Assembly (NCBI GenBank): GCA_965238175.1
Contig: CBDEGZ010000003.1
Location: 2,208,001-2,272,000 of the forward strand
Source: Gammaproteobacteria bacterium
GTDB taxonomy: Bacteria; Pseudomonadota; Gammaproteobacteria; CAJXQU01
DNA length: 64,000 nucleotides
Direction of reading: 5' to 3'
Within the stretch, counting starts at the first letter, position 1; every line of letters starts with the position of its first letter. The translations under genes and the position numbers were made by a program. Below, in pieces: positions 34,679 to 59,936 of this stretch. The notes under the pieces are model-generated. The model had not been told where the DNA came from. It saw only the letters and a list, made by a program, of their open reading frames with translations, and did no database searches.

Positions 34679-34857
34679 TGGGTAACGACGTAGTGTTATT
34701 GATAAAAGGTGCAATAACTGAGTGTACCGAAGAAGAGCAGGCAAGCATTTATGAATGTAAAAGTATTCTTGATCAAGTGGTCACGCATTATGGGAGTGCT
34801 GCAATATTTGCGTTGGCTTTAGTGGGTGCCGAACAGCAGGAGAAGGTAAATACATGA
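34678..34857 (+). CDS. Small phage protein
   Basis: Coupled between TerL and portal. Confidence 0.5.
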   Translation: MGNDVVLLIKGAITECTEEEQASIYECKSILDQVVTHYGSAAIFALALVGAEQQEKVNT

Positions 34858-36542
34858 TAGTCGACATACACGGTAATCCAATTAAAAAACCTGATCTGAA
34901 GGACAATCAGTCAGCTAAACTCAGTTCACTTCAACATGAATTTGCAGGACATCCTTCTCGCGGATTAACGCCTGCAAAAGCGGCGAGTATAGTCGACATA
35001 CACGATAATCCAATTAAAAAACCTGATCTGAAGGACAATCAGTCAGCTAAACTCAGTTCACTTCAACATGAATTTGCAGGACATCCTTCTCGCGGATTAA
35101 CGCCTGCAAAAGCGGCGAGTATTTTGCAATCAGCTGAGCAAGGTGATCTGATCGCACAATTTGATCTGTTCGAAGACATGGAAGAAAAAGACACTCAGAT
35201 CTTATCGGAAATGTCGAAACGTAAACGGGCATTAATGAAGCTGGGTTGGTCAATTAAACCACCAAGAAACGCAACTGCTCAAGAAATGAAAGCCACAGAA
35301 CAAGTGGCCGAATTGGTAGCCTCAATCAATGATGTTGAAGATATCATCTTTGATTTGGCTGATGGCATAGGCAAAGGTTTTTCATGTCTTGAATACGAAG
35401 GTGGCTGGCAACAATACGATAACGAATGGCTACCAAAAAGAATTACCTACCGTCCACAACGTTGGTTTACTACACCGCAAAATAAACAGAATGAAATACG
35501 ACTACGCGGTAATGGTGGTGATGGTGATCCACTCTGGCATTTTGGTTGGATTTGTCATCATCACAAATCACGATCAGGTTACATCGGGCGATCAGGATTA
35601 TTCCGCACACTCGTTTGGCCCTACATATTTAAAAACTATTCAGTTCGAGATTTAGCCGAATTTCTGGAAATTTACGGCTTGCCTTTACGACTTGGAAAAT
35701 ATCCATCGGGTGCATCGAATACAGAAAAAATGACCTTGCTTAAAGCGGTCGTCAACATCGGACATGATGCAGCAGGGATCATTCCCCAGGGAATGGAGAT
35801 TGATTTCAAAGAAGCAGCCAAAGGAGATAAAGATCCATTCGAATATATGATCGGCTGGTGTGAGCGTTCAATATCAAAAGTAATCACCGGCACAACTGCA
35901 CCAACCGATGGCGCAAGCTCTGGCGGCAACCGTGCGCTGGGTGATTATTCGAAAGAAGTACTTTGGGATATCACCGTCAGTGATGCACGACAAATTGATT
36001 CGACGTTGACCAAAGATTTAGTCTGGCCAATAACCGCCCTTAATACTGGCATAACCGATCCGCGTCGTTCACCACGCTGGGTGTCTGACACAAATGAATA
36101 TGAAGATATTAAATTGTTTTCTGCGTCACTACCGAACCTGGTCGATATCGGCATGGAAATTCCAGAACAGTGGGCTAAACAAAAAATCGGTGTTCCGGAA
36201 GTTGAAGAAGGTAAAAAAATATTACAACGTTCGGCCAGCGTAACTGTTCCAGTAGAAGCAGCAAGTGCAGCCGCTAGAGCAGCATTAAAAGCTGAAGTTG
36301 TTGAACGTGATTTGGCCGATGCTCTGGCCGACCAGATAGAAAAACAAACCAATGCAGCTACCACGGAAATGATTGAAAAAATACGAAAGATTGCGCTCAA
36401 GGCAGACAGCCTGCAACAACTCAGTGATGAATTAATAGCTGCCTTTAAATATTTGGATGAAACCAAACTAGCAGAAATCATGCGCATGGGTTTTGCCGTC
36501 GCAGAGCTTGGCGGTCGTTATGAAGCTCAGGAGAGTATTTGA
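34854..36542 (+). CDS. Portal protein (Mu gp29 / DUF935) with N-terminal 44-aa duplication
   Basis: HPSRGLTP, LFEDMEEKD, EFLEIYGLPLRLGKY, IGHDAAGIIP. Confidence 0.93.
   Translation: MIVDIHGNPIKKPDLKDNQSAKLSSLQHEFAGHPSRGLTPAKAASIVDIHDNPIKKPDLKDNQSAKLSSLQHEFAGHPSRGLTPAKAASILQSAEQGDLIAQFDLFEDMEEKDTQILSEMSKRKRALMKLGWSIKPPRNATAQEMKATEQVAELVASINDVEDIIFDLADGIGKGFSCLEYEGGWQQYDNEWLPKRITYRPQRWFTTPQNKQNEIRLRGNGGDGDPLWHFGWICHHHKSRSGYIGRSGLFRTLVWPYIFKNYSVRDLAEFLEIYGLPLRLGKYPSGASNTEKMTLLKAVVNIGHDAAGIIPQGMEIDFKEAAKGDKDPFEYMIGWCERSISKVITGTTAPTDGASSGGNRALGDYSKEVLWDITVSDARQIDSTLTKDLVWPITALNTGITDPRRSPRWVSDTNEYEDIKLFSASLPNLVDIGMEIPEQWAKQKIGVPEVEEGKKILQRSASVTVPVEAASAAARAALKAEVVERDLADALADQIEKQTNAATTEMIEKIRKIALKADSLQQLSDELIAAFKYLDETKLAEIMRMGFAVAELGGRYEAQESI
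34857..35120 (+). repeat. 132-bp in-frame tandem duplication
   Basis: 34857-34988 and 34989-35120 differ at one base (ggt vs gat). Confidence 0.95.
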
Positions 36543-36688: not shown

Positions 36689-36937
36689 ATGGGTCTAATT
36701 ATTATGCAACGCAAAAAAACTATCGGTAAAAAAGCAAATTCGACACAGGTCGGCGGCCAGCATTACAAATCAAAAAACATTCAGCCGTGGGATTACATCG
36801 CCGTAAATGGCCTGGGTTTTTTCGAAGGGAATATTGTCAAGTATGTGACTCGTCACAATGATAAAAATGGTGTCGAGGATTTGAAAAAGGCGCGGCACTA
36901 TCTGGATAAATTGATCGAGTTGCAAAGCGCTAAATAG
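36689..36937 (+). CDS. DUF3310 family protein
   Basis: QVGGQHY, IQPWDYI, GNIVKYVTR, DLKKARHYL. Confidence 0.88.
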   Translation: MGLIIMQRKKTIGKKANSTQVGGQHYKSKNIQPWDYIAVNGLGFFEGNIVKYVTRHNDKNGVEDLKKARHYLDKLIELQSAK

Positions 36938-36964
36938 CTTCATACGTGTTCTTGAAAAACAAGT

Positions 36965-37156
36965 ATGAAATGGGAAAAGAAAACAGAATATTACCTGTTA
37001 TCAGATAAAGGCTGGAAGATATCTAGAGCCTTTGTAAAGGGCAAACAAAAATTCACACTCTGGCAGCCTGATAAAAAAGAACATTCATATTTTAGAAATG
37101 CTGGAACGTTTAGAACAACTAAGGATGCAAAGAGCAAAGCAGAATGTCTAAAGTAA
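36965..37156 (+). CDS. Small phage protein
   Basis: 63-aa ORF in accessory cluster. Confidence 0.5.
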   Translation: MKWEKKTEYYLLSDKGWKISRAFVKGKQKFTLWQPDKKEHSYFRNAGTFRTTKDAKSKAECLK

Positions 37157-37347
37157 CTAAAGAAGAAAAGGACTTTGTTGAACAATTTAAAGATCAAAAA
37201 TACCCAAATCTAGGAACGTTTAAAAATAGAAAAAAACATAAGCCAACATGGAACGATAATGATGCAATTAGTGCGGGTATGGATGCTGCTAAAGATGTGA
37301 ATTTGCATCATGGCGTTGATGGTGCTGAGCGGAATTTGTTGATGTGA
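37144..37347 (+). CDS. Small phage protein
   Basis: Overlaps neighbours; G.DAAKDVNLHHGV tail. Confidence 0.45.
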   Translation: MSKVTKEEKDFVEQFKDQKYPNLGTFKNRKKHKPTWNDNDAISAGMDAAKDVNLHHGVDGAERNLLM

Positions 37348-37598
37348 GTCTGGCAACGCTGAAGCTTATAATTCGGAAAAATAACAAACCAACAATATGG
37401 GAATTAAAGGGTGAAAAAATAAAGCCTTGTCCGTTTTGCGGAAGTTCAGATATTCATCTAGCTGAAGACGAAGGACTTGTTATTGGAGATCATACCTTGC
37501 ATTGGTGTTCATGCAGTGATTGTGGTTGCGAAGGTCCTTATAGAGATTGTAGGTTGAATGCTATTGCTGTTTGGCAAAGAAGGAATGATCCTAAGTGA
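37344..37598 (+). CDS. Lar-family restriction alleviation-like Zn finger
   Basis: KPCPFCG...CSDCG..GP...AIAVWQRR. Confidence 0.8.
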   Translation: MSLATLKLIIRKNNKPTIWELKGEKIKPCPFCGSSDIHLAEDEGLVIGDHTLHWCSCSDCGCEGPYRDCRLNAIAVWQRRNDPK

Positions 37599-37641
37599 AA
37601 AATTTGAATGTTGATGTTAGTTGTGAATTTCGAGGTTTACT

Positions 37642-37926
37642 ATGAATAAAACAGAAATGTTGTTAGTGATTTTAATGGAAGAATGCAACGAATTAGCACA
37701 GCAAGCATCAAAAGCTATACGGTTTGGTATTGATCAACAACGTGACTTACCAACAAGCAACAGGCAAAGATTGATAGCAGAATGGAATGACTTAATTGCA
37801 GTTGTTGAAATGTTAGAACGTGAGGGTATTGATTTACAGCCTGACCCTGCCGCGATACTCTCAAAAAAGAAAAAAGTTGATCGATATATGTCTTACTCTT
37901 CGGAGCTAGGTACTTTAAAAGTATAG
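37642..37926 (+). CDS. MazG-like NTP pyrophosphohydrolase
   Basis: LMEECNELAQ.ASKAIRFG, E..D motif. Confidence 0.7.
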   Translation: MNKTEMLLVILMEECNELAQQASKAIRFGIDQQRDLPTSNRQRLIAEWNDLIAVVEMLEREGIDLQPDPAAILSKKKKVDRYMSYSSELGTLKV

Positions 37927-37938
37927 CTGAATATTTTC

Positions 37939-38730
37939 ATGCCAACAGACTACACCGCCCTTCCCTTCATAGAACAAATAACCTTCTTCCGGAACAAGGT
38001 AAACACTCCTACCGCCACATGGCGTGATGTCTGGAAGTCAGGACACGACAAAGGCTTTATGGTTGCGGGTGCGGCGAAAGCTGATCTGCTTGAAGATTTC
38101 CGACAAACGATCGATAAGATGATCGCTCAAGGAATGACGATTAAAGACTTTCGTGATGATTTTGATCGGATCGTCAAAACACATGGCTGGGAATACAACG
38201 GTGGTCGAGGCTGGCGAACTCGCGTGATTTACGAAACCAATCTGCGTACGAGTTATCAAGCAGGTCGCTTTGCACAATTGACCAATCCTAAGCTACTCAA
38301 GTCACGCCCATTCTGGCGTTATCATCATTCTGATTCAGTGCAACACCCTCGGCCTTTACATTTGAAATGGCATAACACCATTTTGCACTCGACTAACAGG
38401 TGGTGGTTAACACATTTTGCACCAAATGGCTGGGGCTGCAAATGTAAAATATTTGCAGAATCACAGCGCACCCTGGAAAAACGCTACGGTAAAACAAAAA
38501 CTGATCCAACGCCGAATGATGGGATTGTCGATGGCCGTCCAGCGGGCATTGATGAGGGCTGGGATTATGCACCGGGTGCATCAGTGGCAGAAGTGACTCG
38601 TAAACAAGTCCTGAAGAAAGCTAGAAAGCTACCGAAGGTATTAAAAGATTCATTGATTGATCGCATCAAAAATATTCCAGCGGTCGGTTTGCTGCCAGAT
38701 GAAGATATTGACACGGATACGGAACAATGA
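37939..38730 (+). CDS. Mu gpF-like head morphogenesis protein
   Basis: FMVAGA, RTRVIYETNLRTSYQAGR, HPRPLH, PNGWGCKC, GWDYAPG. Confidence 0.92.
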   Translation: MPTDYTALPFIEQITFFRNKVNTPTATWRDVWKSGHDKGFMVAGAAKADLLEDFRQTIDKMIAQGMTIKDFRDDFDRIVKTHGWEYNGGRGWRTRVIYETNLRTSYQAGRFAQLTNPKLLKSRPFWRYHHSDSVQHPRPLHLKWHNTILHSTNRWWLTHFAPNGWGCKCKIFAESQRTLEKRYGKTKTDPTPNDGIVDGRPAGIDEGWDYAPGASVAEVTRKQVLKKARKLPKVLKDSLIDRIKNIPAVGLLPDEDIDTDTEQ

Positions 38731-39188
38731 CAGGCGCAACTATAACTGTTGATATAGATGACGATTCTGTTCAAGCGTCATTCCGGCGTCTACTTGAGTT
38801 GGGTGGCGATGCATCAGATGTGACAGAAGAAATCCGTGAAGCATTATTGATCAGCCATCAAGACAGGTTTGACCAACAAGTTGACCCGGACGGTGAACCC
38901 TGGGCACCATTATCACCAGCCTACAAAAAACAAAAAGAAAAAAAGCGACCCGGCAAAGGCATACTTGTTTATGATGAAATAATGTCATTGCTGGTGTCTG
39001 AAGCCACAGATGATGAAGTACGTATCGGGACAGGCCCACAATCAAAAGATTATGCCGCTGCACAAAATTTTGGTTATGCACCTAATAACTTAACATCACG
39101 AACCTTTCTTGGCTTCTCAGAACAAGATCAGGAAGAAGCTGTGGAGATATTACAGGAGCACATTAATAGATTATTAAGTGGCATTTAA
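38727..39188 (+). CDS. Mu gpG-like virion morphogenesis protein
   Basis: RFDQQVDPDGEPWAPLS, YAAAQNFG, RTFLGFS. Confidence 0.88.
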   Translation: MTGATITVDIDDDSVQASFRRLLELGGDASDVTEEIREALLISHQDRFDQQVDPDGEPWAPLSPAYKKQKEKKRPGKGILVYDEIMSLLVSEATDDEVRIGTGPQSKDYAAAQNFGYAPNNLTSRTFLGFSEQDQEEAVEILQEHINRLLSGI

Positions 39189-39189
39189 A

Positions 39190-39218
39190 AAAGCCCGACC
39201 ATCCAATGGCCGGGCTTT
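39190..39218. terminator. Intrinsic terminator after G
   Basis: aaagcccgacc-atccaat-ggccgggcttt. Confidence 0.7.
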
Positions 39219-39357
39219 AACATGGAGGTTATTAAGAGCCATGCTTTAACTCTGAATAATAACCAGTCCAATAATATTAAATAACTATCACTCAGATCAA
39301 CCTCAAAGCTGCAAACTATTGTTATCTATCACCCTACAAATTAATTTCAAAAAGTAC

Positions 39358-39385
39358 TTGCATTAAACGTCATGACGTGTATAAT
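39358..39385 (+). promoter_or_regulatory. Sigma70-type promoter with a palindromic operator in the spacer
   Basis: TTGCAT-16 nt-TATAAT; perfect palindrome ACGTCATGACGT at 39367-39378. Confidence 0.75.
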
Positions 39386-39453
39386 TAGTTACAAGAGTTA
39401 AGCAAAGTGTTTAACTCCTCGCGCCTCGGAGCAACAGGGGCAGGAGAAAGAAA

Positions 39454-39735
39454 ATGAACGAATTAAAAGCTTTTGAACCAGAATACACAGCAACAGTAGA
39501 CAACGAAATAATGAATTGCTACCACAATAATAACCTTGACACGGTGATCAAGCTGACCATTGAAGATGATGCTCAAGAGATTCTTGATGATTGGGCTAGA
39601 TTAGATATCTGGGTCACAGACGTCCAGCTTTTTCAAAAGATGGCCAAAAAGCATAATGTCGAGGTTGATGACATTCATTACGATGAAAATTGCGAATATT
39701 TAATTGCTGATGGCGTGATTTTGGAAGCCGTTTAA
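39454..39735 (+). CDS. Small highly acidic protein, candidate anti-CRISPR / anti-defence factor
   Basis: AGGAG RBS; 22 D/E versus 6 K/R in 93 aa; function inferred from locus. Confidence 0.7.
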   Translation: MNELKAFEPEYTATVDNEIMNCYHNNNLDTVIKLTIEDDAQEILDDWARLDIWVTDVQLFQKMAKKHNVEVDDIHYDENCEYLIADGVILEAV

Positions 39736-39981
39736 TTGACGAATCACCCTAACAGAAATTGGCGTAAACGGTGGACAGTAGATCTGTCCACCTGCACCGC
39801 AACTCACGAGAGTGGCTTTGTAATGACTTACAAGAAAACCAGCGATGAACACATTGACGGTACCTTTGATAATGCAAACGACTGGTTAAAAACACAAAAA
39901 GATAAGACTTCAAAGAAAGTGGAAAAGCTGGTTAGCGAAGCCGGAGTTATTTATAAAGAGGCATTAGATGCAAGACAATAA
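39736..39981 (+). CDS. Small accessory protein (NHPNR N-terminus)
   Basis: TTG start immediately after the upstream stop. Confidence 0.65.
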   Translation: MTNHPNRNWRKRWTVDLSTCTATHESGFVMTYKKTSDEHIDGTFDNANDWLKTQKDKTSKKVEKLVSEAGVIYKEALDARQ

Positions 39982-40135
39982 AAAACACAACAACTCGCAC
40001 CGCACAAATAAAAAGACCGTGCAATTAGTCTTCACAAAAAAAGAATTTGATCGATTCCAGTTGGCTAAACAAGATTTAAATGCGCGATCCGCAAAAGATC
40101 TAGTTTTAAAGCTGCTAGATAAAGTAAAAAGCTAA
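39968..40135 (+). CDS. 55-aa ribbon-helix-helix-like protein, candidate Aca-like repressor (not in ORF track)
   Basis: GAGG RBS; KTVQLVFTKKEFDRFQLAKQDLNARSAKDLVLKLLDKV has a beta-alpha-alpha pattern. Confidence 0.55.
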   Translation: MQDNKKHNNSHRTNKKTVQLVFTKKEFDRFQLAKQDLNARSAKDLVLKLLDKVKS

Positions 40136-40356
40136 ACACCTCAGTTGCGCTCTAAGCAACGATCTCCCTATTCAGGCTACGATGACAATCTAAAAAATAC
40201 TTAAACGATTTCTCAAAAAATTAAAGGGTAACCAGAGTAGGTTGTGATCTTGATTATGGATGATGATCGCACTGTTACCGTAAAAAGGGCGAAAAACTCT
40301 ATATCGACATTTTATTTGATCTGGTTTAATCTGATCCTTCTGCACCATTCAACTAT

Positions 40357-40403
40357 CCGCTGAAGCCCTTCAGCTTCCGGCAGATCCAACCCTTCGAGAA
40401 AAT
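40357..40403 (+). promoter_or_regulatory. Late promoter 2 (PI-like) with Mor/C-type dyad
   Basis: Copy of 30280-30315; -10-like GAAAAT. Confidence 0.75.
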
Positions 40404-40412
40404 AGCGGCTCA

Positions 40413-41492
40413 ATGAAGAAGCCGCAAAAAGTCAAAAACAAAAACACATCATTCGTTGCTCTGGCGTTTGAGATTTCTGGTACTCAGTCAGAAGTCCAAC
40501 TATTGCCAGATGGCGTCACCACGACAGATGATGCTCGTGCTATCAAACTCAAAATTGATGCTGATATTGCTGCTGGTGTAATTGCTAAGACTGATTCACG
40601 CAAACGCGACACAGTGATTGATTATGAGCACCACACACTATTGTCTGAATATACGGATGTTAAAGCAATTGCTGCTGGCTGGTTTAGCAAACTTGAATAT
40701 CGTCCAGGTGAAGGATTGTTCATCACCGATGCACGATGGACAGATACAGCCGCCACTCATATCGATGCGAAAGAATATAAATATATTTCTGGTGTTTTCA
40801 CATACAACAACAAAAATGGCGCAATCACCCGGATCCTTCATGCGGGTTTAACAAACGATCCTGCAATTGATGGTCTCAACGAGCTTGAACTTCAAGCGGC
40901 TGCAAAATTCAACAATCAACCTGAAGAGGAATCTCTAATGAACGAAGAACAATTAGCACTGTTGGGCCTTAAAAAAGACGCGACAGAAGAAGAAATTACC
41001 GCCGCACTGAAAGCGCAGCAAACAAAAGCTGATGACAGCACACAAGAAGTTGCTGCACTAAAAGCTAGTTTAAAAGAAGCCCAGGCAAACGCTGATGGCG
41101 ACTCTGGCAAGCCTGATCCATCTAAGTATGTTCCTGTCGAAGCACTGGAAGAAATTAAAACTGAATTTGCCGCATTGAAAGCAAGTCAAGGTGAAAAAGA
41201 AGTTGAAGAAATCGTCGCCTTAGCGATGCAAGAAGGAAAGATCCTCCCTGCTCAAGAACAATGGGCGCGTGATTTAGGTGCAAAAGATGTGGCTGATCTA
41301 AAAGCCTACGTTGAAGCATCGCCAGCAATCGCGGCATTGAAAGGTTCTCAAACTGAAGAAGGTGATCAGCAGTTTGATGCGGATGGTAAAGCGGTGTTGT
41401 CTGAAGACCAAGTGGCCATCTGTAAAGCAATGGGCATGTCTGTAGAAGACTATGCGAAGACTCTGGCTGAAGAAAAGAATCAAGCGTCTTAA
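40413..41492 (+). CDS. Mu gpI-like prohead protease; probable in-frame scaffold (Z) start at 40938
   Basis: VIDYEH, AAGW, EYKYISGVF, GLTNDPA; internal GAGGA RBS plus ATG at 40938. Confidence 0.92.
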   Translation: MKKPQKVKNKNTSFVALAFEISGTQSEVQLLPDGVTTTDDARAIKLKIDADIAAGVIAKTDSRKRDTVIDYEHHTLLSEYTDVKAIAAGWFSKLEYRPGEGLFITDARWTDTAATHIDAKEYKYISGVFTYNNKNGAITRILHAGLTNDPAIDGLNELELQAAAKFNNQPEEESLMNEEQLALLGLKKDATEEEITAALKAQQTKADDSTQEVAALKASLKEAQANADGDSGKPDPSKYVPVEALEEIKTEFAALKASQGEKEVEEIVALAMQEGKILPAQEQWARDLGAKDVADLKAYVEASPAIAALKGSQTEEGDQQFDADGKAVLSEDQVAICKAMGMSVEDYAKTLAEEKNQAS

Positions 41493-43767: not shown

Positions 43768-46700
43768 ATGTCTGTCACTGGCCGAATCTTTAATGACACC
43801 ATGTTCAAGGGTCGAGAAGGGATTTTCGCTTCTGATCGTATGGTGTCTGAGATTTTCAAAGCCAACCCAAGCTCGGCCGTAGTTGATGAAGGCCAGCCTG
43901 TTGTAATTGATGTTGCCGGAAATGACACCGCACCCGTTCACGGACTCAATCTAAACAGCATCGTCATAGTTAATGATGTCAGTTACGGCACAACCACCGT
44001 CAATGGTGATGGTACCGTGACTTATACGCACGATGGTTTGACTGAGGAATTTAGCGACTCATTCACCTATAAAATTCAGAACAATAATGGTGAAATATCA
44101 AACACAGCAACCGTTGTGATCAGCATCAATCCTGTCAACGATACTGCACCTGTATTCACCAGCCCAATTGCCGCAAATGTGGCAGAACGAACAACACTGG
44201 TTCACACCGTGACCGCGACAGATGCAGACGGAAGCCTATTAACTTACTCAATTAATGGTACTGGGCCTGACGACGCCAAATTCCAAATCACCATTAGTGG
44301 TGTGATGAGTTTTGTTCAAGCACCGAATTTTGAAGCGCCAACAGATGTAGGTGCTGACGGAGTTTATAACGTCGACGTGCTCGTGAACGATGGCGTATTT
44401 AATGTAGTTCAATCCATCGCCGTGACCGTCACCGATGCAGCCGAAAACCCAATTGCTGCAAACGATGCTTTCACAGTCGGCGAAGGTGCGACCAGCTCAT
44501 TAAATGTTCTACCAAATGACACTGATCCACAAAATGACATTGACGCATCGACCGTCACCGTCATCGGCCAGCCTGCTAATGGATCAGCATCTGTGCAGAC
44601 AGATGGCCGAATAATTTACATACATAATGGCAGCGAAACGACGTCAGATACATTAACGTATCTCGTCCAGGATACCGAAGGTAACCTGTCAAACACAGCC
44701 ACCATCAGCCTAACAATAACACCAGCGAATGACGCACCAATTGCCGTCAATGATGTCTTCACCGTCACACAAGGCACTACCACAAATATCAACCTGGCAA
44801 CCAATGATACCGACATCGACAACGCATTAGATCTAACATCCATCACGATCATAAGCGCACCGTCTGAAGGCGCACTGGTTGATAACAACGATGGAACGGT
44901 TGCGTACACAAACACCAGCACCGGCGCAAGTTCAGACAGTTTCACTTATACGATAGATGATGTGTCGGGGAGTACTTCCAATATTGCAACGGCGACTATT
45001 ACAGTTAATGCAGCCATTTTGTTGAGCCTATGGAACTCTGACGGTTCAGTAGATAGCGTCGCACCAACTTACCCACCCGCCAACACTCAACATTACGTAG
45101 AAGTTAATAATGGTGGTGCAAACACGATTTTGTGGAAGGCACCTGCTGGGGCGGTGTTGCGGCAGGGTGAGCGGCCTGTTGTTAATTTAGCATCGGGTTT
45201 GGTCTCAGAGACAGTCACTGTTATTTCTGGGCGCGAGTATCAAGTTTATGGAAAAGGTGGTAACGGCGACACGATAGCATTGTCAGGTGCAGCGACAGCG
45301 ACATTAACAATGGATGGTGTTAACGAGATTGGGTTTAACAACGGCAATCCTATTGCCGCATCTAGTACATCTCTGACGTTAACAGTTACAGGTCTATTGA
45401 CTGAATTATCTGTTGTTGATGTGACAGGCTTCACCAATCAAAAACCGCCGGAGTATGTGAGCGTTGGAGTTGGCGTAGGGGATTTCTTACCAATCTATTT
45501 AAATAAAGGCGAAATTTCAGGCGTTGGAAATATACCTTACGCCTGGCTTTTATATAATCCCGCTAACGTAGTTAGTTCGGATGTTACGAACGGCGTATTT
45601 TCTTTCAGCTCCAACGCTCACTTAGCCGGTCTTGTGACAAACGGAGCATTCTTATTAAATGCTCAAAATACAGGGGATTATGAATACACTATTAGAGCAA
45701 GGCGTGTAGGATCACAACAATCTAGCGAGACGTTGCAAGTTTATAACGGACAGGCTTGGCAGCTTTTAGTACCTCCGACAGCAAACTCAAACGAGTGGGT
45801 AGAGTATAAAATAAAAGCCAACGGAGGCGATGGGCAGTTTATCATACTTTCTCGATTCTCAGGTGATTCTAATGTAGTCACTTACGAAATAGACTACATT
45901 AGAATTAAATCTACGAAAGACCCGCGCTCAAACATCGACGGCATGACATGGAGCCGTCACCAGAACGATGGTACCTCTGTTGATCCAGTTACAGGCCGAG
46001 TCAATCGAGGCACAAATACGTTGATTCCTGAGTTACGAAGGAAGGGGGTGTTGTTTGAGGGGGCTGGAGGATATGTCGGAGGTAATTACAATCCCGGAAG
46101 TTTAGATCAATGGCTTAAACCAGGCGGTGGCATATCCGTAGCCACTGACGGCACAATGTCGCCTTTAGGGCTTCCGGCTGAACTGATTGCTGCGTTAAAT
46201 CCTAAGCCATTCTACAGGCAAGCGCATGCCATTTTAAATACGATAGATGGTAATGATTACGCGGTAAAAATATATGTAAAAAAAGGAAATTGGCCATATG
46301 TGGCAATACAACCCGACAATGGAGTGTCCGCGTTTTACTATGATTTTGACACGGACACTTACGTAGACGCAGATTCCACTTATGTGAGGCACCAACTTTT
46401 ACCCGATGGTTGGGTGGAGATAACGCTAAGTATCACGGCGGCCAATAATAATATGTTTTTCTTTTTGGCCCAAGATCTAAACGGTAGCGCCTATAACAAT
46501 ACGCCTGAGAATAGCTCCGTTTACTTTGGAGGCCTGATTTATAACGAAGGTGCGGTGCCTAAATCTTTTACCGACCTTTCTTCTGTTGCAGCCACAAACG
46601 ACGTACAAGTCACTCTTGCAGACTTCGGTTTTGATGGAGCCTCAAGCGGCTCCTTTAAAGTTGATTTAACTTTCAATCATGATGGTGATCAAACACCAGC

Positions 46701-47007
46701 TCAAGATTACTCCTTAATTACTCTTAATGGATCAGATACCACAGGCTTGCTCTATCTAAATTCAGCAGGCCAATTAGCGTCACACGACGGTACTAACTCT
46801 GTTAATACGGGCGTTATCGTTTCAAAAGACACACTTTATGAAGCTGAAGTTGCTTATACAGTTGGTGGTAATTTAACTATCTTTGTAGGTGGCGTACAAC
46901 TTGGTAGTTTAGCTTGGAATGATGACTGGAATATCGGCACTTTAATTCAGTTTGCCAAAGGCTATCCATACGGCGTTTATATGAAAAATGTTGAGGCATT
47001 GCTATGA
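43768..47007 (+). CDS. 1079-aa Ig-like/cadherin repeat protein with C-terminal beta-rich domains
   Basis: Repeats AxND, DSFTYxI, SNTATV; cadherin motifs ATDADG, PNFEAP; no signal peptide. Confidence 0.8.
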   Translation: MSVTGRIFNDTMFKGREGIFASDRMVSEIFKANPSSAVVDEGQPVVIDVAGNDTAPVHGLNLNSIVIVNDVSYGTTTVNGDGTVTYTHDGLTEEFSDSFTYKIQNNNGEISNTATVVISINPVNDTAPVFTSPIAANVAERTTLVHTVTATDADGSLLTYSINGTGPDDAKFQITISGVMSFVQAPNFEAPTDVGADGVYNVDVLVNDGVFNVVQSIAVTVTDAAENPIAANDAFTVGEGATSSLNVLPNDTDPQNDIDASTVTVIGQPANGSASVQTDGRIIYIHNGSETTSDTLTYLVQDTEGNLSNTATISLTITPANDAPIAVNDVFTVTQGTTTNINLATNDTDIDNALDLTSITIISAPSEGALVDNNDGTVAYTNTSTGASSDSFTYTIDDVSGSTSNIATATITVNAAILLSLWNSDGSVDSVAPTYPPANTQHYVEVNNGGANTILWKAPAGAVLRQGERPVVNLASGLVSETVTVISGREYQVYGKGGNGDTIALSGAATATLTMDGVNEIGFNNGNPIAASSTSLTLTVTGLLTELSVVDVTGFTNQKPPEYVSVGVGVGDFLPIYLNKGEISGVGNIPYAWLLYNPANVVSSDVTNGVFSFSSNAHLAGLVTNGAFLLNAQNTGDYEYTIRARRVGSQQSSETLQVYNGQAWQLLVPPTANSNEWVEYKIKANGGDGQFIILSRFSGDSNVVTYEIDYIRIKSTKDPRSNIDGMTWSRHQNDGTSVDPVTGRVNRGTNTLIPELRRKGVLFEGAGGYVGGNYNPGSLDQWLKPGGGISVATDGTMSPLGLPAELIAALNPKPFYRQAHAILNTIDGNDYAVKIYVKKGNWPYVAIQPDNGVSAFYYDFDTDTYVDADSTYVRHQLLPDGWVEITLSITAANNNMFFFLAQDLNGSAYNNTPENSSVYFGGLIYNEGAVPKSFTDLSSVAATNDVQVTLADFGFDGASSGSFKVDLTFNHDGDQTPAQDYSLITLNGSDTTGLLYLNSAGQLASHDGTNSVNTGVIVSKDTLYEAEVAYTVGGNLTIFVGGVQLGSLAWNDDWNIGTLIQFAKGYPYGVYMKNVEALL

Positions 47008-57811: not shown

Positions 57812-59188
57812 ATGCCAGCAGAGATAAAAATAGCTCAATTCACACTGTCGCAGAATTCCAGTTCACATTCTTGGAAAGCACAAATTGCGCTGGCCGATAA
57901 AGCCGAGTGGCAGCGTTTCGAATTGCGTGATCCATTCGTTATTCAATTAGGCAATGTGACCTATAATTTAGTGGTCGACAACAAACAGTTACAACGCCTA
58001 TCATCGGTCAATAACGTCCCTGTAATCACTGCGCTTAGTCCACTCTCATTGCACGGCTCCTCACGCGCATCACGCATCACTAAAAGCTGGAATACGGCTG
58101 TCACAGCACAGGTCGCCGTCGAAGAAGTGTTAGAACAAAGTATCGACTGGAAAATAGTTAATTGGACAATTGAGGCAGGCAAGCTGGCCTTTACTGATGC
58201 TTATCCACTCGACATAGCACGAACAATTATTAATGCCGCTGGTGGCATTCTACGCTCGAATCCGGACGGCACAGTCAAGGCCGAAAAAGCCTTTCCAGTC
58301 AGCGTGAAAGATTGGCAAACTGCCAGCATTGATCACACGCTCACCGACTTAAACGACAACGTTAATATCATCGAATTAAATCAACATAAAGAGTTGGTAA
58401 ACAAGGTCACAATTTCAAGTGATTCCAGTGATAGTTCACAGCTACAAATGCAGATTGATCCACGTCCGGAAGGACTCAATAATGGCAAGTTTTCATTCGC
58501 ACCAGGCGACACAGTGGGAGTGCTGGCATTTGCCTCTGAAGGCGTGACAATCGGCCAGCCAGAAAGTTCAAGCGGCACCGTCACAACAGAAGCCGATCAG
58601 ACCTTCCAGCAAACACAAGACCTATCATTTTCTGATACAGATTCAGCAACACTAAGCTACCCAGCAAACAGCATCGAAAGTATCCTCTGGATAGGAAATG
58701 ATCTAGGCGCAATTGCATTAGATACTGATCGGAGAACAGCGCTAATAACAACACCAGGAACAGGCGTTTGTAGAGTCACATACAGTGTCACTGCGAAGGC
58801 TTACAAAGTGACCACAGAACAGAGTGTAAGCGGCCTGACAGAATACCCGGTTCAACTACACCTCGAAGGTGAAACAGGTACCGCCAGCAGCCAACGATCA
58901 ATCATCGGTCAGCGTGGTGATGGTGACAAACAAGGCGTCGATATCAGCGACCCAATCCTGACCGACATACAAGCTTTACTGGCAAGAGCAACAACCGAAT
59001 TAGACAAAGGCGAACCACTACAACCAGTCGCTCTGGAATGCGTTCATCGAGAAGGGTTAGAACAGGGTCAAATAGCACTAATCGTTGACTCTCAACAAGC
59101 CCCAAATTGGCGCGGAATGATCAATGGAATAAACCACCAATATGATGGTATAAAGACCCTAACAAAACTCGACATTCTGAGGCCGTAA
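57812..59188 (+). CDS. Putative tail hub protein
   Basis: 458 aa; P.DI...I..AAGG.L.S..DG motif. Confidence 0.55.
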   Translation: MPAEIKIAQFTLSQNSSSHSWKAQIALADKAEWQRFELRDPFVIQLGNVTYNLVVDNKQLQRLSSVNNVPVITALSPLSLHGSSRASRITKSWNTAVTAQVAVEEVLEQSIDWKIVNWTIEAGKLAFTDAYPLDIARTIINAAGGILRSNPDGTVKAEKAFPVSVKDWQTASIDHTLTDLNDNVNIIELNQHKELVNKVTISSDSSDSSQLQMQIDPRPEGLNNGKFSFAPGDTVGVLAFASEGVTIGQPESSSGTVTTEADQTFQQTQDLSFSDTDSATLSYPANSIESILWIGNDLGAIALDTDRRTALITTPGTGVCRVTYSVTAKAYKVTTEQSVSGLTEYPVQLHLEGETGTASSQRSIIGQRGDGDKQGVDISDPILTDIQALLARATTELDKGEPLQPVALECVHREGLEQGQIALIVDSQQAPNWRGMINGINHQYDGIKTLTKLDILRP

Positions 59189-59628: not shown

Positions 59629-59936
59629 TACAAGTCTGCCACTTTACGAAGCTGATTTCGGTAGTGTCTCACACTACTGTCACCACAACGCCACCTGGAA
59701 CAAAGGTGATTATACAAGCCTGCCACTTTACGAAGCTGATTTCGGTAGTTGTCTCACACTACTGTCACCACAACGCCACCTGGAACAAAGGTGATTATAC
59801 AAGTCTGCCACTTTACGAAGCTGATTTCGGTAGTGTCTCACACTACTGTCGCCACAATGCCACCTGGGACAAAGGTGGTTATACAGTCGCTGTTTTACGA
59901 AGTTCGTACTGTGCACTACTGCCACAACTAGCCACT
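59629..59936. repeat. Tandem 84/85/84-bp repeats plus a degenerate fourth copy between tRNA-Cys and tRNA-Leu
   Basis: Units start at 59629, 59713, 59798, 59882. Confidence 0.92.

Follow-up and report, generated by a model that had tools for sequence, protein, structure and literature searches.

A cassette of three small genes lies between the homolog of the Mu G gene and the protease/scaffold gene I in a Mu-like siphovirus prophage of a gammaproteobacterium (assembly GCA_965238175.1, contig CBDEGZ010000003.1, positions 2,208,001 to 2,272,000; this whole 64,000-nt stretch is referred to below as the window). Judged from its sequence and a structural model, the cassette appears to be built like an operon of anti-CRISPR (acr) and anti-CRISPR-associated (aca) genes, with an accessory phage slot, an inverted repeat inside the promoter, and a terminal gene for a modelled ribbon-helix-helix (RHH) protein. 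The middle open reading frame (ORF), ORF2, belongs to an unnamed family of phage and mobile-element proteins, and the succession of promoter, operator, 5′ untranslated region (UTR), cargo, ORF2 relative, and regulator recurs in related loci. The cassette is probably an autoregulated accessory operon. Counter-defense is the likeliest function of its payload, at somewhat less than an even chance, and the more specific assignment as an inhibitor of a type II-C Cas9 is rather improbable.

The original prediction had compared the position of the cassette with that of acr-aca operons in Mu-like phages, and this comparison was borne out by the annotated map of the Pseudomonas phage JBD26, in which F, the G homolog, a type I-E acr gene, a type I-F acr gene, a small gene, and the protease gene follow each other in the same order. 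In the available part of PMC3993853, the acr region is located between the Mu G homolog and the gene for the protease/scaffold and is bounded by a conserved promoter on its 5′ side and by a conserved gene for a DNA-binding protein on its 3′ side, and the accessible text of PMC4378225 describes it as a low-GC region of genomic plasticity. The GC content of the cassette is 38.9%, compared to 42.9% for the prophage; the lower value fits a foreign origin and favors the view that the operon may have been acquired horizontally. With the slot equivalence to JBD26, the published acr region, and the lower GC content, the positional argument stands. The protease I protein shares 39% identity over 82% of its length with the proteases of Pseudomonas D3112/JBD-type phages and 44% identity with those of Ralstonia phages, and all 307 phage records matched in the protease search were below 60% identity. 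In the Ralstonia phage RS138, the slot is occupied by one different, unrelated gene. At the DNA level, the slot had no match in 50,697 phage records, and seven kin genomes allowed no slot comparison, the stretches upstream of their protease I homologs being too diverse and of insufficient length. One related locus (L016) that had been considered as an instance of the same slot was dropped, as the 853-aa gene following its cassette had no detectable relation to protease I.

In the original prediction, ORF2 was one of the possibly new proteins without a match to named Acr or Aca families; it is, however, no private novelty. Six relatives with 39-51% identity were found, and out of 1.84 billion cluster representatives, a profile built from 16 family members retrieved 288 at E≤0.001, of which 96 reached E≤1e-10; ORF2 itself matches the family profile across all 80 positions (E 1.0e-28). 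The conserved blocks of the family are W-x-V-D-L, T-A-x-H, and R-E-A-G-D, and members such as ORF2 have the N-terminal peptide NHPNR(N/G)WR. The structural model of ORF2 (predicted local distance difference test score, pLDDT, 82.5; predicted template modelling score, pTM, 0.70) consists of four strands between a short helix at the N-terminus and a long one at the C-terminus. ORF2 had no significant match in Pfam, PHROGs, NCBIfam, or the sequences of the PDB, a Foldseek search with its model returned nothing at E≤0.001, and tblastn against phages was empty. A full-text literature search on the peptide word NHPNR returned unrelated papers only. Going by this search, Rfam, and the family libraries, both the ORF2 family and the UTR element described below appear to be undescribed.

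We collected 76 loci with ORF2 relatives (61 distinct proteins) from viral, genome, and metagenome contigs; these were fished with the peptide NHPNR(N/G)WR and include kin, and the counts derived from them are not independent. The invariance of the N-terminal peptide in this set is partly a matter of construction because the loci were fished with it, and many profile matches lack the peptide. The shared layout consists of an inverted repeat between the −35 and −10 elements, a 5′ UTR with two hairpins, a variable first gene or genes, the ORF2 relative, and finally a small gene for a DNA-binding protein whose fold is interchangeable. The regions upstream of the related cassettes are similar to that of the window, also in loci with a different first gene, and the small ORF behind the ORF2 relative mostly overlaps it or lies within a few bases. 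Scanning of 49 downstream ORFs at E≤0.05 gave 13 helix-turn-helix (HTH)-type proteins (two of them weak Aca2_YdiL matches), four IS1595 zinc ribbons, three weak RHH matches, one weak DUF7359 match, and 28 without a match, where the ORFs had been picked automatically, some of them surely wrongly, and many of the unmatched ones are RHH- or HTH-like by eye only. Other neighbors are a KorA-type repressor (E 3.8e-11) and HTH_3 proteins. The ORF2 body was also found as tandem duplicates and in fusions: with an RHH-like tail (L012, L039, and L052), behind two RHH-like repeats (P0140), with an HTH domain (P0138), and with a weak Lar-like zinc ribbon (P0131, E 1.6e-4). The front gene varies, one acidic 86-aa family recurring in eight loci. 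The loci are surrounded by genes typical of phage and mobile-element accessory regions, namely integrases, a serine recombinase, tail genes, RecT/YqaJ, terminase, and portal genes, and orphan DNA methyltransferases (N6_N4_Mtase or Dam-type D12) were located within a few kb upstream of the cassette in five of the 22 loci examined (L029, L046, L048, L053, and L066). As a separate observation, an IS1595-type zinc-ribbon protein is encoded behind the ORF2 relative, or in fusion with it, in L028, L029, L076, L079, L080, and L087.

The predicted promoter of the cassette, TTGCAT and TATAAT with a 16-nt spacer holding a perfect 12-bp palindrome, is present upstream of ORF1 (Table 1). It was not listed by a consensus scan because its −35 hexamer matches TTGACA at only three of six positions. 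Perfect 12-bp palindromes occur 13 times in the window, and such a palindrome is by itself not rare. The palindrome can nevertheless be regarded as a family trait rather than a chance word because inverted repeats recur at the same promoter position in related cassettes: between −35 and −10, 16 of 38 distinct related promoter regions had a perfect inverted repeat whose arms were at least 6 nt long, compared to 0 of 38 and 2 of 38 in two control regions. This corroborates the operator-in-promoter design originally proposed. The related promoters have −35 elements of the TTGAC- or TTGCAT-type, and the sequence of the inverted repeat differs between lineages. We infer that ACGTCATGACGT is the likely operator, bound by an ORF3 dimer.

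Downstream of the promoter, the segment 39395-39446 of the window fits the UTR layout of the family, in which a variable hairpin and a conserved hairpin are followed by a Shine-Dalgarno site and by a start codon 11-13 nt after the conserved element. The whole UTR of the window folds at −22.2 kcal/mol (z −3.80), with none of 200 shuffles as good. The GCCTCGG-loop-CAGGGGC element of hairpin 2 has a single copy in the 3.35-Mb genome, counted on both strands, at 39423-39441. In 52 of the 76 related loci (48 of 67 when only loci with at least 400 nt upstream are counted), it precedes the ORF2 relative and shares its strand; in none does it lie downstream or on the other strand. In the 42 distinct segments obtained, the five-pair stem was part of the minimum-energy fold in 37, a Shine-Dalgarno-like word stood behind the element in 37, and a start codon followed 11-13 nt after it in 36. 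Hairpin 1, directly 5′ of the conserved element, has a quite different sequence in each lineage and was scored sequence by sequence. In the window its segment gave z −4.21 (0 of 200 shuffles as good), and the 37 distinct 34-nt segments at this position in related cassettes had a mean z of −2.16, compared to −0.02 for segments 100 nt further up; z was −2 or lower in 18 of 37 segments and in 2 of 37 controls (Mann-Whitney p about 1e-9). From a MAFFT alignment of 31 UTRs, RNAalifold derived no structure other than the invariant hairpin 2, with five pairs and none covarying; covariation is uninformative on this pairing because the stem never varies. A scan of 39150-40450 with Rfam gave nothing above noise.

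The three coupled small genes, including the acidic first one, are as originally described (Table 1). For ORF3, the proposed beta-alpha-alpha RHH fold agrees with the structural model, which has helices at residues 24-39 and 42-54 behind an unstructured basic N-terminus (pLDDT 78.2). The homodimer model scored 0.53, compared to 0.04 for the best control; of 30 proteins solved as pairs, 21 attained the score mark that it reached, whereas none of 23 solved as single chains did, the runs shared at least 98% of contacts, and the partner pLDDT was at least 74. Residues 16-22 of the two modelled copies lie antiparallel to each other (19 with 19, 18 with 20, and 17 with 21/22), and the second helices of the copies pack against each other (46 with 46 and 49 with 49). 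ORF3 is thus modelled as an RHH-type dimer of Arc/MetJ/CopG topology. Because many such dimers have been solved, the score reports likeness to RHH dimers rather than DNA binding. ORF3 would be the repressor of the cassette promoter. No HTH or Aca2_YdiL (PF08965) match was obtained for ORF3 at E≤1, its tblastn search against phages was empty, and the protein Atlas provided leads only, to unnamed viral clusters and to DUF3950 (0.91). The word-seeded search of 5.77 billion proteins found only ORF3 itself, and the same search with ORF1 likewise found only ORF1. ORF1 had no match in Pfam, PHROG, NCBIfam, or PDB sequences and no usable match in the protein Atlas. Its membership in the recurrent acidic 86-aa upstream family was considered and rejected, the two being unrelated (hhalign probability 0.6%).

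The N-terminal peptide of the ORF2 family and the conserved hairpin may form a pair. The codons of NHPNR(N/G)WR vary synonymously, with four codons used for proline and six for arginine, and selection therefore acts on the peptide rather than on the DNA. The hairpin accompanies the peptide on three protein bodies, namely the ORF2 body, a 68-aa protein, and an HTH protein. To avoid the bias introduced by fishing with the peptide, 15 viral loci were fetched via the C-terminal block of a peptide-less alignment; the hairpin was present upstream in five of nine peptide-bearing loci and in none of six peptide-less loci (hypergeometric 0.042), a comparison that includes non-independent kin and, among the six, two duplicates. 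This association between peptide and hairpin is suggestive only.

We compared the cassette with known systems of similar architecture. According to the available part of PMC13551039, the acr-aca1, -aca2, -aca10, and -aca12 operons combine a DNA motif at the promoter with an RNA hairpin shortly behind the start site, Aca1-12 are HTH families, and Aca14 is an RHH Aca; the statement in the original prediction that Aca10 is an RHH protein is in conflict with this source. Similarly to the acr-aca1 operons of the D3112/JBD-type Mu-like phages (Casadabanvirus), the cassette occupies the same slot, starts with its own 5′ promoter, contains two small cargo genes followed by a small DNA-binding gene, and has a lower GC content; the operator at the promoter and the hairpin just after the start site are also shared, as far as these operons are covered in the accessible text of PMC13551039. 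In contrast to them, its three proteins have no similarity to the annotated acr genes or Aca families compared, its regulator is modelled as RHH-type rather than HTH, and no counterpart was found there for its conserved middle gene of the ORF2 family or for its second hairpin of conserved sequence. A small RHH protein in the aca position is reminiscent of Aca14, which in the same source is predicted to occupy, in dimeric form, an inverted repeat that overlaps the promoter. The palindrome predicted for ORF3 lies in the spacer and not over the −10 element, and the likeness between ORF3 and Aca14 is by description only, as far as the latter is described in that text.

Post-transcriptional control of acr operons has so far been described for Aca2 and Aca1, going by the available part of PMC13551039. 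In the acrIF8-aca2 operon of phage ZF40, as presented there, a DNA operator at the promoter is combined with RNA hairpins in the 5′ UTR by the ribosome site, similarly to the cassette; one HTH protein performs both functions in that operon, whereas here the DNA-binding gene varies and the hairpin and the ORF2 peptide are conserved. By analogy, this pattern suggests that the DNA and RNA roles combined in Aca2 may here be split between two proteins. In its full form, this idea holds that the ORF2 family is the RNA-binding half of a split Aca-like control, that NHPNR(N/G)WR recognizes the conserved hairpin, that the RHH or HTH protein represses the promoter, and that the resulting portable two-layer switch delivers variable counter-defense cargo in hundreds of phages and mobile elements, a chain of assumptions that we consider doubtful as a whole.

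The N protein of phage lambda with boxB is a pair of an arginine-rich peptide and an RNA hairpin. The short basic N-terminal peptide and the small conserved hairpin within one transcription unit of the cassette could be likened to this pair by analogy only, and the cassette hairpin abuts a ribosome site rather than a terminator-override site.

Taken as an acr-aca-like operon, the cassette would work as follows. The ORF3 dimer would bind the palindrome and shut the promoter off once it has accumulated. The conserved hairpin by the ribosome site would provide a second, post-transcriptional control, possibly via the Arg/Trp-rich N-terminal peptide of ORF2. ORF1, and perhaps ORF2 too, would act on host defense. 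The slot, the operon layout, the operator design, and the RHH-type fold of the last gene product in the original acr-aca reading stand, but no match to the available Acr or Aca families was found.

Several results weigh against this interpretation. None of the three proteins matched an Acr, Aca, or anti-restriction family in Pfam, PHROGs, NCBIfam, or PDB sequences, and the trait that defines acr-aca operons, a CRISPR-Cas-inhibiting gene, could not be recognized in the cassette by homology. Guilt by association is inapplicable to ORF1 and ORF3 because no relatives of either were found. The wide fold search with ORF2 gave a best Z of 5.2, where 7-8 is the typical best of the tool for unmatched models, and its rows for AcrIIC2 (Z 4.7, root-mean-square deviation 3.0, 69 aligned), CdiI-type immunity proteins, and AcrF10 are within noise. 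ORF3 had no Pfam or NCBIfam RHH match by sequence, its monomer returned nothing at E≤0.001 in Foldseek and only two rows at E 7-8, and its kinship with the RHH-like partners of other ORF2 relatives was rejected (hhalign probability 0.25%); a profile of that partner family matched only designed repeat proteins in the PDB. The fishing of the 76 loci with the peptide counts here as well. In one of them (L076), the cassette is located among ordinary chromosomal genes (trpC, trpD, truA, and a fimV-like gene) beside a full IS1595 transposase. Among 401 genomes of the class, 42 contained the bare UTR pattern (50 places, compared to 8 places for the reversed pattern), a tally that includes one unpublished genome (G300) whose locus was left out of all other analysis; of 29 places checked, a ribosome site and start codon followed in 3 and an ORF2-family match downstream in 2. 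Because only 3 of 29 have a ribosome site and start codon, the bare pattern is unspecific and is no usable marker in GC-rich genomes.

The host genome has a single Cas1 match and, as the only Cas1-linked CRISPR locus found in it, a locus at G000:C3:2870518-2877607 (L025), which we take to be of subtype II-C from its gene content and the general traits of that subtype. It comprises an N-terminal piece of cas9 (359 aa, Cas9_a), a 1.23-kb insertion sequence, a C-terminal piece of cas9 (669 aa, HNH_4 and RuvC_III), cas1, cas2, a second copy of the insertion sequence, and the repeats; no further cas genes, such as csn2 or cas4, were seen among the scanned ORFs of the locus. The array has four 36-nt repeats and three 30-nt spacers, and the second insertion-sequence copy cuts the first repeat. 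The insertion sequence, which encodes a 344-aa transposase (rve and HTH_29), has expanded in the genome, with matches at 61 places at 99% identity or higher. Spacer 3 matches positions 58840-58869 of the window at 29 of 30 nt, within an ORF (57812-59188) in the tail region of the prophage, whereas spacers 1 and 2 have no match elsewhere at up to seven mismatches. Neisseria-type II-C arrays are read on the minus strand; if this array is read likewise, the mismatch of spacer 3 lies 6 nt from the end proximal to the protospacer-adjacent motif (PAM), and in the opposite orientation it is PAM-distal. The near-identity indicates that the phage lineage has met this Cas9. The orthologous cas9 of a kin genome (G006, 67% identity, same repeat) is an open frame of 1031 aa, another (G002) has a cas9 remnant, and a third (G004) has a different cas9. 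None of the eight spacers of two kin arrays matches the prophage at up to five mismatches. The host also has HsdM-type methyltransferase genes. Elsewhere in the genome (G000:C3:575965-577525), 24 copies of a 66-bp tandem repeat were picked up by a k-mer scan for CRISPR arrays, and this candidate was rejected as the repeat encodes a 22-residue protein repeat.

These data bear on the narrower idea that the cassette is an anti-Cas9 operon that let the phage lysogenize a host with a matching type II-C spacer. The cas9-cas1-cas2 content and 36-nt repeats of the host locus, the self-targeting spacer, and the intact ortholog in the kin genome are in agreement with it, and in the abstract of PMC7708048 Acrs and target mutation are given as common escapes from self-targeting spacers, with deterioration being rare. 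However, the prophage can be tolerated without any Acr because cas9 is split by the insertion sequence and the array is cut, perhaps also because of the mismatch in the target, which under minus-strand reading would be close to the PAM; the self-targeting spacer was found, but with a broken cas9 it gives no argument for an active Acr. The lack of prophage matches among the kin spacers and a fold likeness to AcrIIC2 that is within noise also speak against it, and we regard this explanation as hardly probable. A toxin-antitoxin, abortive-infection, or superinfection-exclusion module, in which ORF2 (or ORF1) is a growth inhibitor checked by ORF3 and serves the lysogen rather than the phage, is an unlikely but more substantial alternative. 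Two overlapping small genes of which one is DNA-binding, a palindromic operator, and partner exchange are shared with type II toxin-antitoxin systems of the CcdA, ParD, MqsA, and HigA types, and a conserved small gene with interchangeable HTH or RHH partners is a pattern of these systems too. Partners of ORF2 relatives weakly match MqsA_antitoxin, Xre-like-HTH, CcdA, and YdaS, and the nearest ORF2 fold rows, although non-significant, include the immunity proteins 9l5u_D (Z 5.2) and 8ssm_D (Z 4.4). In contrast, all the antitoxin matches are below curated cut-offs, and ORF1 and ORF2 match no toxin family in Pfam or NCBIfam. The modelled ORF3 consists of a basic tail and an RHH core only, with no toxin-binding extension that could wrap a toxin, and the RHH-like partners in other loci are equally minimal. 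The three-gene arrangement with a variable first gene, the fusions of the ORF2 body to RHH or HTH domains, and its tandem duplication are further differences from a toxin-antitoxin pair.

Alternatively, the cassette may be a regulatory unit of the phage itself, with ORF2 and ORF3 timing neighboring phage genes such as the downstream head genes, and ORF1 a minor accessory gene with no role in defense. Such a role would suit the late promoter that precedes gene I in phage Mu, the two control layers of the cassette, and the occurrence of ORF2 relatives in varied phage regions by portal, terminase, recombination, and tail genes. We judge it quite unlikely, as relatives of the phage have different cargo or no such cassette in the slot, cassettes differ freely in their first gene, the GC content of the cassette is below that of the prophage, and the L076 cassette lies outside any phage. 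Chance ORFs or a decayed, functionless remnant would account for the lack of detectable relatives of ORF1 and ORF3, and no RNA run is listed for the stretch. Such an explanation is extremely improbable in view of three tightly coupled ORFs behind ribosome sites, the conservation of ORF2 across distant taxa with free synonymous codons in its N-terminal motif, a promoter, operator, and UTR layout common to dozens of loci, and a confident dimer model of ORF3.

Table 1. Positions of the cassette elements and of the bordering genes in the window.
Feature	Position	Strand	Remarks
Mu G-type virion morphogenesis / tail completion gene	38727-39188	+	Left border of the slot; PF05069 E 4.9e-21; phrog_26 E 1.9e-27
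Hairpin after G, weakly terminator-like	39190-39218	+	13-nt arms, 92% complementary; only UUU behind
Sigma-70-type promoter-like site	39358-39385	+	TTGCAT 39358-39363, 16-nt spacer, TATAAT 39380-39385
Perfect 12-bp palindrome ACGTCATGACGT in the promoter spacer	39367-39378	.	Predicted ORF3 operator; single exact copy in the window
UTR hairpin 1	39395-39417	+	10-bp stem, 3-nt loop; sequence varies between cassettes
UTR hairpin 2 (GCGCCTCGG, loop, CAGGGGC)	39421-39441	+	Conserved sequence; abuts the ribosome-binding site
Shine-Dalgarno AGGAG of ORF1	39442-39446	+	Partly paired in the predicted fold
ORF1, 93 aa, acidic	39454-39735	+	22 D+E, 6 K+R, isoelectric point (pI) 4.08; variable payload position
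ORF2, 81 aa	39736-39981	+	TTG start directly after the ORF1 TAA; unnamed phage/mobile-element family
ORF3, 55 aa, basic	39968-40135	+	pI 10.23; overlaps ORF2 by 14 nt; modelled RHH-type homodimer
Mu-like protease/scaffold gene I	40413-41492	+	Right border of the slot; PF10123 E 1.4e-92

The terminator originally assumed behind the G homolog was supported in part: a hairpin is located there (−16.9 kcal/mol, z −1.83, 10 of 200 shuffles as good), but it is modest, is followed by UUU only, and was not called by a terminator scan. The prophage spans approximately 20.5-60 kb of the window and encodes a transposase A with the Mu C-terminal domain (PF09299), an AAA+ B-type protein, a portal protein, F, G, the protease, the major head region, and a tape measure protein; the host genes pgsA and uvrC are to its right. 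A second accessory cluster of five small genes with 37.5% GC content is located between the portal and Mu F genes (36689-37926) and includes a DUF3310 protein (E 1.6e-12) and a weak MazG-like protein. This next accessory slot of the prophage also carries a Lar restriction-alleviation gene (37344-37598, PF14354 E 4e-9), which we counted in favor of a counter-defense function. The portal ORF (34854-36542) contains a near-perfect tandem duplication of approximately 45 residues at its N-terminus. Between the head and tail genes (43768-47007) lies the gene for a 1079-aa protein that contains bacterial Ig repeats (Big_9 E 3.7e-35) and cadherin-like repeats (Cadherin_4 E 1.2e-31). Three direct repeats of 84-85 bp (59635-59816) near the right end of the prophage, just before pgsA and uvrC, may be transposase-binding end repeats.

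The host CRISPR locus is a clean example of a self-targeting spacer that is tolerated alongside a cas9 gene disrupted by an insertion sequence. For post-transcriptional control of operons of this kind, the N-terminal peptide of ORF2 and the conserved hairpin constitute a directly testable pair. If the payload of the cassette serves counter-defense, ORF1 and the ORF2 family would be new inhibitor candidates, and the combination of a spacer-borne operator, a 5′ UTR with two hairpins, an ORF2 relative, and a small gene for a DNA-binding protein would provide a search handle for many more variable cargo genes that does not depend on the known Aca families.

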